DNA of 64,000 nucleotides from an uncultured Chloroflexia bacterium (GTDB lineage: Bacteria; Chloroflexota; Limnocylindria; QHBO01), in NCBI GenBank assembly GCA_963814375.1, contig CAWFCQ010000003.1:1-64000 (forward strand), in the 5' to 3' direction. Positions 37,967-42,775 of the stretch are shown here, piece after piece. Both the position numbers and the translations under genes were made by a program. Under the pieces are notes generated by a model. The model worked only from the letters and a program-made list of their open reading frames with translations, had not been told where the DNA came from and searched no databases. Numbering within the stretch: the stretch's first letter is position 1; every line of letters begins with the position of its first letter.

Positions 37967-38770
37967 TCACTCGGTCTGGGCCAGGAGGAACGTGATCAGG
38001 GCTGCCATCTGGCTCTCGCTGATGACGTCCTCGGGATGGGGCGGCATGCCGGTCGGCTCGCCGTCGTTGTAGTTGCCAGCCGAGTCGCGGATCCACAGCT
38101 CCAGGAAGTTCGCCGGATCCTCCTCGTAGTCCGCGATCATCTGGTCCAGGCCGGATGGCTCGATCTCGAGATCGGTGATGAGGTTCGAGCCGATGGTCTG
38201 GAGGTTCGGCCCGACGCCGCCCTCCAGCTCCGCGCCGTGGCAGCCACCGCAGCCGACCGCCGCGTAGACCTCCTGCCCGGCCTCGACCGTGTTCTCCACC
38301 TCCGCGGGCGCCTCTTCGCCGGCCTCCACCGCCCAGCCCTCGACGAGCGCGACGACGGCATCGATCTGCTGCTCGTTCAGCGGGCCGCCGACCTCGGCCG
38401 CCCAAGCCGGCATCGGCGAGTTGACGTTGCCCGAGACGACCACGCCGCCGTAGCTGACGGCCAGGTTGACGTAGTTCGAGTTGACCCGCAGCTTGTTGGC
38501 CAGCGACGTGGTGTGCAGCGACGGGGCTTGGCGGCCGTCCGGATCGTTCGGGATCGCCCCACCCTCGCCCTCGGGGCCGTGACAGCGCGCGCACCCCGCG
38601 GCGGCCGGCTGGGTGTCATCGTCGCTGAAGACCACCTCGCCGTATTCGAGCAGCTCCTCGTCGTGCGCGGTAGCGATCTGCTCACGCCGCGCGTTGTCGG
38701 TGATCCAGTACATCATCGTCCACGCCGAAAGCGCGATCAGCAGGACGACGCCGAGCGACTTCAGGCGCAT
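37967..38770 (-). CDS. Membrane-anchored diheme cytochrome c
   Basis: N-terminal TM; CARCH and CGGCH; probable Met ligands in SPMPAW and TGMPP. Confidence 0.9.
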   Translation of the reverse strand: MRLKSLGVVLLIALSAWTMMYWITDNARREQIATAHDEELLEYGEVVFSDDDTQPAAAGCARCHGPEGEGGAIPNDPDGRQAPSLHTTSLANKLRVNSNYVNLAVSYGGVVVSGNVNSPMPAWAAEVGGPLNEQQIDAVVALVEGWAVEAGEEAPAEVENTVEAGQEVYAAVGCGGCHGAELEGGVGPNLQTIGSNLITDLEIEPSGLDQMIADYEEDPANFLELWIRDSAGNYNDGEPTGMPPHPEDVISESQMAALITFLLAQTE

Positions 38771-38774
38771 CGCA

Positions 38775-39431
38775 TCAGCCCGTGCAATGCTCCATGTCGG
38801 TCGGCACGCGCTGGTCGAAGGTGATGGTCCCGGGCGGCGGGCCGTTGAGCACCTCCGCGGTGTTGATGGTGTAGACGCCGTCCACGACGGTCACCGGGAA
38901 CCGGTCCATCCCGCGCGGGGCGGGCCCATCGCGCTTCTCGCCGAGCACCGTGTATTTCGAGCCGTGGCAGAGGCACTCGAACCACTGGCTGGCCTGGCAC
39001 ACCTGTGGGACCTGGCAGCCGAGGTGGGGGCACTTGCGATAGAGCGCCAACACCGAGCGGTCCTCCGGCGCAAGCTCGTCGCTCACTTCCGCGCCGGGAT
39101 CGGGAACCGGCTCCGCCACCGTCCCGTCGCCGTCGACCCGGGCCTTTGCCGCCGGCACGTTGACGAAGAAGAAGTTGGCCTGGTTGTAGATGTAGGGCAG
39201 GCCATTGGCCCACTCCGGGGCGAGGGTGTTGATGTCCTCCGCGGTGCCGAGCGAAATCTCGGCACCGAGCCCCTCGCTGAGGTTGGGCCAGAGAAATGCG
39301 AGCGTGGCGCCGACGAACTCGAGGGTCAGCACGCCCATCCCCACGCCGAGCATGCGACGCATGAAGGTGCGGCGGCTGATCTCGCCGTCACGGGGTCCGT
39401 GGACCGGTCCGTAGGAGGCGTGCTGGGTCAT
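38775..39431 (-). CDS. Rieske iron-sulfur subunit (QcrA/PetC-like)
   Basis: Tat anchor SRRTFM plus TM; CPHLGC and CLCHGSKY; GPAPRG. Confidence 0.93.
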   Translation of the reverse strand: MTQHASYGPVHGPRDGEISRRTFMRRMLGVGMGVLTLEFVGATLAFLWPNLSEGLGAEISLGTAEDINTLAPEWANGLPYIYNQANFFFVNVPAAKARVDGDGTVAEPVPDPGAEVSDELAPEDRSVLALYRKCPHLGCQVPQVCQASQWFECLCHGSKYTVLGEKRDGPAPRGMDRFPVTVVDGVYTINTAEVLNGPPPGTITFDQRVPTDMEHCTG

Positions 39432-40054
39432 AGGTTGAAGAACAGTCCGTCCCACGGCCAGACCCAGCTCCAGCCGGGGCCGCGGAAGAAGGAGCCGATG
39501 AACGTCGTGATCAGCCCGCCGATCATCAGGCTCAGGAAGACGACCCACATCAGCTTGCGGTCACGGGCCGCCTTGTAGGGCGAGCGATCCAGGTACGGGA
39601 TGAGGATCAGGCCGCCGAGGTAGACGGGGATGATGAGCACGCCGGCCACGGTGGCGTTGAAGTAGCTCAGGATCTCCTGAAGGCCAAGGAAGTACCACGG
39701 CGCCTTGGCGACATGAGGCGTGACGGCCGGGTTGGCCATCTCCTCCAGCGGCGCCCGGATGAAGACGCTCGTGATCACGAGCAGCGCCATGATCAGGGCG
39801 GCCATTACGAACTCGGCGCGAAGCAGGTGCGGCCAGGTCAGCACGGTCTCGTCCGGGCGCTTGTCGACGCGGACCATCGACTCCTGCTTCACGTAGGCGA
39901 GGAGGCGGAAGCGCTCGGTGCCTGGCACGCCCGGAGGCCCGGGCAGCTTCGGCCCTCCCGGAGCCACGGCCGGCGCGGCGATCGGCGCACGCTCCGGCGC
40001 CTGCGTCGGGGCGTTCTTGTCGGCGGTCGCGTTCGGTCGCTTCTCGATCGTCAT
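39428..40054 (-). CDS. Cytochrome b6 subunit IV-like (C-terminal half of a split cytochrome b)
   Basis: TWPHLL, APLEEMANP, KAPWYFLGLQE (PEWY-equivalent loop) and IPYLDR; three TMs. Confidence 0.9.
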   Translation of the reverse strand: MTIEKRPNATADKNAPTQAPERAPIAAPAVAPGGPKLPGPPGVPGTERFRLLAYVKQESMVRVDKRPDETVLTWPHLLRAEFVMAALIMALLVITSVFIRAPLEEMANPAVTPHVAKAPWYFLGLQEILSYFNATVAGVLIIPVYLGGLILIPYLDRSPYKAARDRKLMWVVFLSLMIGGLITTFIGSFFRGPGWSWVWPWDGLFFNL

Positions 40055-40070
40055 CGGTCGCTCCTGCAGC

Positions 40071-40805
40071 CTACACCGGCCCGCTGATCCCGCCGTCCTT
40101 GCGGATCCGCCAGAAGTGGACCACCAGGAACAGGGCGGTGACGAGCGGGAAGAAGATCACGTGGGCGACATAGAAGCGCAGCAGCGTCCCCTGTCCCACG
40201 GCGATCCCGCCAAGGAGGAAGAAGGCCGACTCGTCGGCGGCGAGCGGCGCGTAGGTCGCCATCTGGGTGCCGACGGTGATGGCCCAGAACGCGATCTGGT
40301 CCCACGGCAGCAGGTAGCCGGTGAAGCTGAGCGCCAGGGTGAAGAAGAGCAGCAAAACGCCGACGACCCAATTGAACTCGCGCGGCGGCTTGTAGGCGCC
40401 GTGGTAGAAGACGCGGATCATGTGGAGGAAGACGGTGAGCACCATGAGGTGCGCCGCCCAGCGATGCATGTTGCGGGTGAAGTCGCCGAACGCGATGGAT
40501 GCGCTGATAGCCTGGATGTCCTGGTAGGCGCGGCTCACCGACGGGACATAGAAGAACATCAGGTAGAGGCCGGTGACGGTCAGCGCCAGGAACAGGAAGA
40601 AGCTGATCCCGCCCAGGCAGAACGTGTAGGTGTATCGCACGGCGTGGCGCTTCACGCGCACCGGGTGGAGGTGGAGGAAGACGTTGTTCATCACCGCCAG
40701 CGCGCGGGTGCGGCTGGTGTGCGGGTAGGGCTGGCGGAAGACGCTGCGCCAGGCCGCGGTCTCGGTGACCCAGCGCACGACCGGGTTGCGGTCGCCGTTG
40801 CTCAT
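40071..40805 (-). CDS. Cytochrome b6-type subunit (N-terminal half of a split cytochrome b)
   Basis: [17 protein letters not shown]...[22 protein letters not shown] and RFYVAHV...VHFWRIRK. Confidence 0.93.
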
Positions 40806-42775
40806 CGGTTCACCGTCACACCGGCCTGCTGGCCGACCTGTCCGAGCACGTTGTCCTTGTAGCTCTCCAAGAGCACCTTCCCGTCAGGCGTGAACCGCTC
40901 GAGCTCGAGCCGGTCCATGGTGATGCAGTTGGTCGGACACCGTTCGACGCAGAGGTTGCAGCGGATGCAGCGCTCCTCGTCGATGATCATGGCGATACCG
41001 CGCGGCCACGCCTGGAAGAAGTCCTGCTCCGGGTCGTCGCCGCCGACCTGCGCCTTGTCGATCATGTAGATCACGCCCTCGGGGCAGACGTCGGCGCAGA
41101 GCCCGCACAGGATACAGCGGGGCCCGTCGATGTTGATGTTGTGGTTGCACTGGAGGCAGCGGCTACCCTCGTCGATCGCGCTGCGGGTGTCGTAGCCGAC
41201 TTCCACCAGCGACGTGAAGTCGCGCCGCAGCTCCGGCGGCGCCATCGGGATCTCCTGCCGATGGGTCGCCTCGTAGAAGCGCGGCATGTCGTGCTCGAGG
41301 CTCTGGGTGATGACCGCACGGTTGATGACCGGCAGCTCCTCGAGCTCCTCGCCGCGGAGCCCCGCCAGCCAACGGTCCACGGCTCGCGCCGCGCGACGCC
41401 CGAGCCCGGCCGCCTCGATGATCGTGGCCGGCCCGGTGACGAAGTCGCCGACCGCGAAGACGCCATCGTTGCTCGTTCCGAAGGTATCCGCGTTGATGAC
41501 CACGTTGCCGCGGTTGAAGTCGAAGGCCAGGTTGTTCATCGGCATGCCGCGGGCGTCCGTCGGCGTGCTGCCGTTCAGCGGCGCGGTGCGCCAGGAGCTC
41601 AGGGAACCGCCCTCGACCACGGTGCGCGTGTCGGTCACGCCCACGTGCCGGTTGAGCTGCGCGCCGAACTCGCCGAGGACGTTGTTGTCCGACGCCTGGC
41701 TGGTGCACGGGATGACCATGTCGCACGGGATGGTGAACTCGCTGCCGGGAATCGGCTCTGCGCTGCGCCGACCGCTGGCATCCGGAGGGCCCAGGCGGGT
41801 GCGCTGGAACGTGATGCCGGTCACGCGGCCGTCCGGGCCGGCCTGGACCTCGACCGGGGAGCTGAAGTACTCGAAGGCGACGCCCTCGAAGCGCGTCTCG
41901 TGCTGCTCCTCCTCGTCCACCACCATCTCGTCCGGGCCGCGGCGGTAGACGATCGTGCTGGTCTTGGCGCCGAGTCTGAGCGCCGTGCGCGACGAGTCCA
42001 TGGCGGTGTAGCCGCCGCCGATGATGACCACGTGCTCGCCGACCCACTGCGGCTGGCCCAGGTTCGCGCGCTTGAGGAAGTCGACGCCGTAGATCACGCC
42101 GTCGAGCTCCTCGCCGGGCACGTTCATCGCCACGGGGTACATGCAGCCGGTCGCGACCACGACCGCGTCGTGACGCTCCTTCAGCTGGTCCAGGGTGATG
42201 TCGCGGCCGATCTCGACGTTGTAGTGGAACTGCACGCCGTGCTTGGCGACCCAGTTGACGTCGAGCTCGATGACGTCACGCGGCAGCCGGAAGGCCGGGA
42301 CGCCGATGAGGGTCGTGCCGCCGCCGGAGGGAAGCGCCTCGTAGACGTGCACTTCGTGACCCCAGCCGCCCAGCTCCTTGGCCGCGGCCAGGCCAGCCGG
42401 GCCGGCTCCGATGACGGCCACGCTGCGACCGGTGGGAGGGGCGACCACGACGTTGTCCGGCATGTTGTTGCTGTAATGCCAGTCGACCAGGAAGCGCTTC
42501 ATGGCGCGGATGGCGAGCGGCTTGTCGATGTCGGCGCGGCGGCAGGCCTTCTCACACGGGGCGGAGCAGACATAGCCGCAGATCGCGGCCACCGGATTCG
42601 GGTCGCGAGCGAGGATGTAGCCCTCCTCGAAGCGACCCTCGGCGGCCAGCATGAGGTAGCCCCGGCAGTTCGTGTTGACCGGGCAGCCTTCCTGGCACTC
42701 GATGTTGCACTGAAGCCAGTCGACGCCGACCTCGGCAGTCTGGAACCTCAGTGGAATCGCGGTATCGCTGATCAC
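40802..42775 (-). CDS. FAD/NAD(P)H oxidoreductase of the GltD/NfnB/DsrL type with a C-terminal 2[4Fe-4S] ferredoxin
   Basis: CQEGCP and [27 protein letters not shown]...[26 protein letters not shown] and [12 protein letters not shown]. Confidence 0.9.

Follow-up and report, generated by a model that had tools for sequence, protein, structure and literature searches.

An operon for a Rieske/cytochrome b complex, headed by a gene for an NADPH-type flavo-iron-sulfur protein (the flavoprotein), lies in a 64,000-nucleotide stretch of DNA from an uncultured Chloroflexia bacterium (Limnocylindria, QHBO01; GenBank assembly GCA_963814375.1, contig CAWFCQ010000003.1, positions 1 to 64,000), which we call the window. 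The flavoprotein gene is translationally coupled to the cytochrome b gene that follows it, the pairing is kept in every Limnocylindria genome of our sample that has the flavoprotein, and the remaining sampled genomes of the class lack both genes. As a leading but tentative reading, which we rate somewhat short of probable, we propose that the flavoprotein is an n-side NADPH subunit of complex III, through which electrons would pass from NADPH by way of flavin adenine dinucleotide (FAD) and iron-sulfur (FeS) clusters to haem cn/bH and the Qi site.

The five genes are packed tightly on the minus strand from 42775 to 37967 (Table 1), where an earlier reading, made by a model from the sequence alone, had placed them. 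That sequence-only reading took the flavoprotein and cytochrome b to be translationally coupled, and the junction sequence confirms this: a shared ATGA at 40805-40802 holds the stop codon of the former and the start codon of the latter. The junction at 39431-39428 is likewise an ATGA, combining the subunit IV stop with the Rieske ATG, and the remaining intergenic gaps measure 16 nucleotides (with an AGGAG) and 4 nucleotides. Metatranscriptome contigs with 85-99% likeness, drawn from four RNA runs in three studies, cover 28-30 of the 30 bins into which 39300-42900 was divided, with DNA carry-over possible; none of the 32 records listed, beyond which 4194 more were matched, bridges the junction at 40802-40805. 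A scan of 35400-45100 gave no promoter-like sites (0.6 expected), and a terminator scan of the same region gave, against an expectation of 2.5, two weak terminator-like sites, both within the cytochrome b gene; the outcome is uninformative.

The translation and Pfam matches of the flavoprotein bear out the architecture that the sequence-only reading had described. An N-terminal module for two [4Fe-4S] clusters is followed by FAD and NADP(H) Rossmann domains and by a C-terminal ferredoxin domain for two further [4Fe-4S] clusters; the Pfam domains are Fer4_20 (residues 21-104), Pyr_redox_2 (118-374), Pyr_redox (248-324) and Fer4/Fer4_7 (553-619), and the motifs comprise a GxGxxG FAD site, a nucleotide site reading IVYRR and two copies of CxxCxxCxxxCP. 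The Cys, YRR and GxGxxG columns are invariant in alignments A2 and A3. Alignment A2 also shows an insert of ~40 residues (residues ~375-415) in the window's flavoprotein family that the other families do not have. In the same alignment, orthologues of family f2 carry Glu or Asp in place of C23, the first cysteine of the N-terminal cluster motif. The nearest solved structure is 9n5u_A, NfnA (8.8e-98), and further solved relatives are the NfnABC-type chain 9bov_A, 8oh5_C, NfnB (4ylf_B) and GltD (2vdc_G), with E-values from 1e-62 to 8.8e-98 against the NfnB, GltD and NfnABC-type structures; the C-terminal part matches FwdF (7bkb_K). The invariant YRR and the nearest solved relatives, NfnB, GltD and DPD, suggest an enzyme of the NADPH type. 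Presumably the architecture resembles that of DsrL as well. A large protein search returned 4887 relatives at E ≤ 1e-60, all generically named and none bearing an organism label by which anammox proteins could be told apart. Structure prediction from a 20-row alignment reached a mean predicted local distance difference test score of 53.8, with the FeS domains below 50, and the model was not used. A second GltD-like frame lies outside the window in the same genome (G000:C3:125364-126818, open frame 797 amino acids), ~4 kb from nuoD (C3:120979); it is 40% identical over residues 23-362, and equivalent frames of ~800 amino acids occur in nearly all genomes of the genus.

The other four proteins carry the motifs of a b6c-type complex. 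In cytochrome b, the two histidine pairs for haems bL and bH (H114, H128, H215 and H230) are invariant in 20 sequences, and the CxGG motif, which marks covalent haem cn in sections of PMC5600118, reads FCLGG, with C63, G65 and G66 invariant in alignments A1 and A4. Subunit IV is a separate gene with the PWY motif of the Qo site (KAPWY is invariant in alignment A5) and a conserved N-terminal motif on the n-side. The Rieske protein has a twin-arginine motif and the boxes CPHLGC and CLCHGSKY, its longest open reading frame (ORF) beginning at 39548, and the translation of the cytochrome c gene holds two CxxCH motifs.

Two observations concern subunit IV itself. Its n-side motif, RxRLLAxVxQE..RVxK, precedes WPHLL (residues 46-78, ~39850-39920) and is present in Limnocylindria, in Ktedonobacteria (flavoprotein non-adjacent) and in Actinomycetota (ferredoxin only); it is absent from Dehalococcoidia and from loci L094 and L110, all of which have no ferredoxin ORF before cytochrome b. 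With only four or five lineages compared, the motif is a possible docking site. In family f2 (L025-L031), subunit IV contains a hydrophobic insert of ~100 residues (A5 columns 190-305) that the window's protein does not have and that is reminiscent of the Kuenenia complexes, whose subunit IV is described as having five helices.

The source genome (2.52 Mb in 8 contigs, 89% complete) holds the operon's cytochrome b as its sole PF00033 match, together with haem-copper oxidase subunit I (COX1), NuoD (NDH-1) and the PntB transhydrogenase; neither an NrfD-family protein, the marker of alternative complex III, nor cytochrome bd was found in it. Given the single cytochrome b, the COX1 and the want of NrfD and cytochrome bd, the operon looks like the organism's only quinol-to-cytochrome c route, and it would be the sole detectable complex III of an aerobe, with a housekeeping role. 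The sequence-only reading was right to take the organism for a non-anammox one, since the nearest public loci are labelled Candidatus Limnocylindria and both a haem-copper oxidase and NDH-1 are encoded in the genome. It had also seen no gltB, nfnA or dsr partner in the window, and the genome yielded none either: GltB (PF01645) gave matches of only 25-28 bits, all outside the window, and the PF10418 (NfnA-type) and PF01077 (DsrAB-type) domains gave zero matches in window and genome.

Linkage of the flavoprotein and cytochrome b

Flavoprotein and cytochrome b share a contig in 21 of the 24 other genomes of the genus, a count that includes the unpublished G006, and the three exceptions are 70-80% complete. 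Four other families contribute 16 genomes, of which 12 have an orthologue, each with cytochrome b directly downstream, and 4 have neither gene; the five-gene order is kept in 9/9 loci long enough to show it, and 3 further loci end early. An even sample of 401 Chloroflexota genomes, 46 of them Limnocylindria, extends this picture to the class. Cytochrome b adjoins the flavoprotein in all 39 Limnocylindria genomes with an orthologue (cut by a contig end in G030), and the remaining 7, from genera g11 and g13, have neither the flavoprotein nor this cytochrome b. The 4-nucleotide start/stop overlap recurs across families whose flavoproteins are only 45-56% identical. The unpublished genomes G206, G303, G372 and G180 enter the 401-genome tallies only, and no conclusion hangs on any one of them.

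Full-length homologues were also found in 51 genomes outside Limnocylindria (52 rows, E 1e-176 to 1e-204 against the Limnocylindria profile, covering approximately positions 5-580 of its 607), including the unpublished G078 and G258. One of the 51, G387, belongs to the order of family f79, in which a homologue is present in 16/16 genomes with a flavoprotein 36-39% identical to ours; cytochrome b follows the flavoprotein in all 15 assessable loci, and subunit IV comes next in 11. These genomes hold a second flavoprotein paralogue as well, which is not adjacent to cytochrome b. In G387 itself (L119, 6184-8860) the flavoprotein-cytochrome b6 pair overlaps by 20 nucleotides and is followed by a response regulator and not by subunit IV or Rieske, whereas its relatives have subunit IV there. 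The adjacency from which the sequence-only reading argued is therefore kept across the class and in a second Chloroflexota order. A quick maximum-likelihood tree of 32 rows, rooted on two paralogues with a weakly supported root, places the 20 Limnocylindria flavoproteins in one clade (Shimodaira-Hasegawa-like approximate likelihood ratio test, SH-aLRT, 93), whose sister group (SH-aLRT 98) comprises nine non-adjacent proteins and that of G387.

A different arrangement of the same operon position appears in a comparison set of the 80 species-level loci whose cytochrome b is most similar to that of the window, which we grouped by lineage label and identity rank. A flavoprotein frame lies upstream in 41 of the 43 Limnocylindria-type loci, some frames being broken or cut by a contig end; of the other two loci, one begins at cytochrome b and one is without the flavoprotein gene. 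All 19 actinobacterial loci carry in the flavoprotein's position only a small ORF with two CxxCxxCxxxC motifs, whereas among the Ktedonobacteria, Dehalococcoidia and other loci (n=18) a ferredoxin-type ORF upstream of cytochrome b was seen in 0 of 17 assessable cases. When one of the small actinobacterial ferredoxins was compared with the whole window genome, its best match was the C-terminal domain of the flavoprotein (6e-12; next 0.002). Two of the ferredoxin-only actinobacterial genomes gave no flavoprotein homologue at 1e-50. Because a ferredoxin-only form occupies the same operon position and resembles the C-terminal domain, we infer that the dicluster domain of the flavoprotein serves as a module for n-side docking and electron entry.

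Some further observations come from the same set. The ferredoxins of four actinobacterial operons (L080 7065-7933, L084 7040-7960, L109 6800-7877 and L112 6908-7985) are 131-149 amino acids long, with no flavoprotein, and the first ORF in each is a membrane protein of 155-208 amino acids with no Pfam family. The Ktedonobacteria cytochromes b are 65-67% identical to that of the window. We considered the cytochrome b histidine motif NVFLHLHP as the ligand of the extra haem b proposed for Kuenenia and rejected it, since it occurs in all 80 loci, the ferredoxin-less ones included, and is non-discriminating; the pattern was among those that picked the loci. H45, H47 and H54 of cytochrome b are invariant and are also present in relatives without ferredoxin or flavoprotein.

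A sample of 351 Actinomycetota genomes contained 22 with an NfnB-like match at E ≤ 1e-130, and 27 of the 28 loci concerned have no cytochrome b within 1.5 kb, a result that describes the sample and not an absence from the phylum. The twenty-eighth, L126 (G531:C43), is a 2.6-kb contig 90% identical to the operon in a bin of the actinobacterial sample, and the near-identical L039 is labelled Steroidobacteraceae; both are probably misbinned, with L126 likely a Limnocylindria contig.

A proposed NADPH subunit of complex III

The operon would encode the housekeeping quinol:cytochrome c oxidoreductase of an aerobe, a b6c-type Rieske/cytochrome b complex with haem cn, to which the flavoprotein would add one extra cytoplasmic subunit. 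Its C-terminal dicluster ferredoxin domain would dock on cytochrome b and subunit IV from the n-side, and its four [4Fe-4S] clusters would form a wire leading from NADPH and FAD to haem cn/bH and on to quinone at Qi. With the Qo site working as usual, NADPH would in this way provide the second of the electrons that reduce quinone at Qi. Such a complex would be an NADPH-fed Q-cycle machine, the hard-wired analogue of the ferredoxin/FNR-to-haem-cn route discussed for b6f. A route from ferredoxin or NADPH to haem cn has long been postulated for cyclic flow through b6f.

The attachment of the flavoprotein and the direction of its electrons are what we infer here. We favour NADPH input over an anammox-style reduction of NADP+ on thermodynamic grounds only. 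A sole complex III must keep a working Q cycle, and moving electrons from quinol (~-70 mV) to NADP+ (-320 mV; both potentials from passages of PMC12954380) across the membrane, against the membrane potential, would have little or no driving force with cytochrome c as acceptor, whereas electrons from NADPH run downhill to quinone without leaving the n-side. A stronger form of the proposal, which we consider doubtful, makes the sole complex III of Limnocylindria a hard-wired NADPH:cytochrome c oxidoreductase with an internal Q cycle, in which quinone would be catalytic within the complex and one NADPH electron would enter haem cn/Qi through the FeS wire per Qo turnover. The free ferredoxin of Actinomycetota and the unlinked flavoprotein of Ktedonobacteria would then be looser forms of the same n-side port. 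A complex prediction that combined two cytochrome b chains, two chains of subunit IV (residues 44-208) and residues 480-657 of the flavoprotein scored 0.22 and 0.25 against a mark of 0.32 and weighs neither way.

Several findings weigh against the NADPH-subunit reading. An uncoupled transfer from NADPH to quinone wastes ~250 mV, and the genome already has NDH-1 and the PntB transhydrogenase. The Rieske protein carries the Ser/Tyr pair, which would suit bifurcation as well and is equally present in relatives without the flavoprotein. The flavoprotein has no membrane anchor, and the literature searched held no experiment on an NAD(P)-linked complex from any non-anammox organism. Menaquinone, general for Chloroflexota, is only an assumption here; a genome search confined to PF02621, the futalosine marker, gave no match.

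The unlinked homologues are a further point on the same side. Cytochrome b was not seen adjoining the homologue in 50 of the 51 non-Limnocylindria Chloroflexota genomes, G387 being the sole exception. The two genes are on different contigs or 0.1-3 Mb apart in 46 of the 50; no cytochrome b match was found in G225, G282 and G358, and in G264 cytochrome b is not among the matches listed. The cultured Dictyobacter alpinus Uno16 and Tengunoibacter tsumagoiensis Uno3 each have both the flavoprotein and the cytochrome b operon, megabases apart. Universal linkage is therefore not borne out: most of the homologous flavoproteins beyond Limnocylindria and family f79 have no cytochrome b gene beside them. 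Their neighbourhoods are varied, with no conserved partner, so that the flavoprotein family can be encoded, and perhaps work, on its own.

An anammox-style bifurcation is unlikely in our estimate, though by no means remote. In that scheme one electron would leave Qo through the Rieske protein and the dihaem cytochrome c to the oxidase, and the low-potential electron would run through bL, bH, cn, the FeS clusters and FAD to make NADPH. In its set of subunits and in the solved structures nearest to the flavoprotein, the operon agrees with the Kuenenia complexes, for which such a mechanism has been proposed and modelled (in passages of PMC12954380), and the conservation of the operon supports bifurcation as well as it supports NADPH input. 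However, an aerobe in which no other complex III was detected would lose its Q cycle to an obligatory diversion of electrons; with cytochrome c rather than nitrite as acceptor, and against the membrane potential, the potentials given in passages of PMC12954380 would put the reaction near or beyond equilibrium; and PntB is already a source of NADPH. The Rieske Ser/Tyr hydrogen-bond pair, though present, does not track the flavoprotein. Such pairs are associated with higher potentials. We tried the pair as a marker of bifurcation and dropped it, because it occurs in every lineage group, with and without the flavoprotein, and so carries no signal; its Tyr is Phe in two Limnocylindria loci.

Rather unlikely, too, is a soluble, free-standing NADPH:acceptor oxidoreductase that is merely co-transcribed in Limnocylindria and f79. 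This would fit the unlinked full-length homologues, the two cultured species among them, their lack of a conserved gene partner and the lack of a predicted anchor. It sits less well with an overlap that persists at such low flavoprotein identity across families, with the joint loss of flavoprotein and cytochrome b in 7/7 genomes, with the linkage in f79 as a second, divergent clade, and with the ferredoxin-only version at the same operon position in Actinomycetota. Nearly all genomes that bear the flavoprotein also carry this cytochrome b clade, and the anammox subunits co-migrate with their complexes (de Almeida 2016, as cited in sections of PMC5600118). That the flavoprotein is an ordinary GltD, NfnB or DsrL with its canonical partner encoded elsewhere is very improbable: sequence similarity and the public annotation (glutamate synthase beta subunit-like oxidoreductase/ferredoxin) speak for it, but the curated NCBIfam models, TIGR01317 and TIGR01318 among them, all fall short of their cut-offs, the C-terminal ferredoxin domain is foreign to GltD and NfnB, and the genome-wide partner search gave nothing beyond the weak GltB matches.

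Neighbouring genes and other features of the window

The operon and the genes 3' of it are listed in Table 1. Upstream, at a distance of 101 nucleotides, is a penicillin-binding-protein gene. The sixth ORF has zero Pfam or NCBIfam matches, and a protein atlas returned only Chloroflexota clusters named hypothetical protein. Its synteny is limited to the 12 nearest loci, L034-L045, and 12 loci in other families of Limnocylindria are without it; an extra subunit peculiar to the family is one possibility, an unrelated protein another. The rest of the tail, through the aldolase-like gene, and the upstream penicillin-binding-protein gene are likewise syntenic in L034-L045 only and not in the other families.

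Table 1. Genes of the operon and of its 3' flank in the window (aa, amino acids; nt, nucleotides)
Feature	Position	Strand	Length	Remarks
NfnB/GltD-like NADPH flavo-iron-sulfur protein	40802..42775	-	657 aa	GTG start; Pfam and NCBIfam matches
Cytochrome b6-type four-helix cytochrome b	40071..40805	-	244 aa	Pfam Cytochrome_B 1.8e-42
Subunit IV-like protein	39428..40054	-	208 aa	Pfam Cytochrom_B_C 9.8e-12
Rieske [2Fe-2S] protein	38775..39431	-	218 aa	from ATG; Pfam Rieske 6.7e-8
Membrane-anchored dihaem cytochrome c	37967..38770	-	267 aa	Pfam Cytochrom_C 1.6e-17, two stretches
Sixth ORF, membrane, family unassigned	37357..37941	-	194 aa	25 nt 3' of cytochrome c gene
Second membrane ORF, family unassigned	37022..37330	-		3' of sixth ORF
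Class II aldolase-like gene	35564..37012			after both membrane ORFs

Elsewhere in the window, a thiamine pyrophosphate (TPP) riboswitch lies at 51360-51468 on the minus strand (Rfam RF00059, 66 bits, above the gathering score), and no tRNA genes were found in the whole window. A gene for an AMP-binding enzyme (8276-9686, minus strand) is split into overlapping frames, the N-terminal part at 8676-9686 and the C-terminal part at 8276-9490, in a region with a G+C content of 59-64% against ~70%; a frameshift, a pseudogene or an error of assembly could explain the split.

Relation to known NAD(P)-linked and b6-type complexes

The operon is a real, well-conserved addition to an already published kind, and the novelty that the sequence-only reading saw in it was overstated. 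Short CxGG cytochromes b of subfamily G that adjoin NAD(P)-binding, Cys-rich FeS oxidoreductases, in planctomycetes and in "many other cases", are already described, and Ktedonobacteria placed in that subfamily, in sections of Dibrova et al. 2017 (PMC5600118). The window operon fits this class, with its short CxGG cytochrome b beside an NAD(P)-binding FeS protein. An earlier comparative-genomic account of the class was reportedly given by Dibrova in 2013. The text of sections 8-9 of PMC5600118, figures and supplements aside, mentions neither Limnocylindria nor any Chloroflexi, and the operon is unmentioned in the titles and abstract openings of the literature on Limnocylindria with cytochrome or bc-complex terms.

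The closest parallel is with anammox bacteria, whose NAD(P)-linked Rieske/cytochrome b complexes are known in Kuenenia stuttgartiensis as Kuste4569-4574 and Kustd1480-1485 (Kartal 2013, as cited in passages of PMC12954380) and were modelled by Hauser et al. 2025 (same passages). Common to the two systems are a cytochrome b6 of four helices that carries haem cn, a subunit IV split off from it, a Rieske protein and, encoded within the operon, a cytoplasmic NAD(P) oxidoreductase that contains FAD and four FeS clusters. The window flavoprotein matches 9bov_A/9bp5 and FwdF 7bkb_K, and Kuste4570 has been likened to the same structural families, NfnABC and Fwd (passages of PMC12954380). The proposed link to the anammox subunits (Kuste4570 and Kustd1483) rests on architecture and on these shared solved relatives, not on a tree. 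The differences are considerable, however. Kuenenia is an anammox planctomycete, the window organism an aerobic heterotroph-type Chloroflexota. The cytochrome c is hexa- or octahaem in Kuenenia but dihaem (two CxxCH) in the window, with no HAO-like partner. Subunit IV has five helices in Kuenenia, whereas that of the window, judged by its length (208 amino acids) and alignment, is without the extra segment. Finally, the Kuenenia complex is one of three complexes III, and the window genome has only one.

NAD(P)-linked Rieske/cytochrome b complexes have been a proposal for more than a decade and are known mainly from slow-growing anammox enrichments. Here the same design appears as the sole complex III of Chloroflexota that are aerobic and abundant in soil and freshwater, and its parts occur, with the genes apart, in cultured Ktedonobacteria, which offers a more tractable route to the questions whether such a flavoprotein is attached to a bc complex at all and in which direction its electrons run. 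If NADPH does enter at Qi, the present picture of the way in which low-potential electrons get to haem cn would have to change; if NADPH is the product instead, quinol-driven bifurcation would be a general way to make reductant.

Other known systems share single parts of the design. As in NfnB, GltD and NfnABC (4ylf_B, 2vdc_G, 9bov_A, 9n5u_A), an N-terminal two-cluster domain precedes FAD and NADPH domains with YRR; unlike them, the flavoprotein has an added C-terminal dicluster domain and a cytochrome b neighbour, and no GltB, NfnA or molybdopterin subunit was found for it. The Geobacter proteins ExtP and ExtQ (NF040969, NF040970; selenite/tellurite reduction) are a looser comparison: cytochrome b scores 290.2 bits against the cut-off of 290 of the NCBIfam equivalog cytb_ExtP, and subunit IV 62 bits against 150. 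The operon content differs, and the match says no more than that each is a short cytochrome b of the b6 type. The last comparison is with the b6f of chloroplasts and cyanobacteria, which binds FNR on its n-side (Zhang et al. 2001, as cited in sections of PMC5600118). FNR differs from the window flavoprotein in its unrelated fold, in lacking an FeS wire and in not being encoded in the operon of the complex, and the window organism, unlike the hosts of b6f, shows no sign of photosynthesis. The arrangement proposed for the window is nevertheless the same in outline, in that an NADP(H) flavoenzyme would sit on the n-side of a haem-cn b6-type complex, with low-potential electrons proposed to enter at haem cn/Qi.

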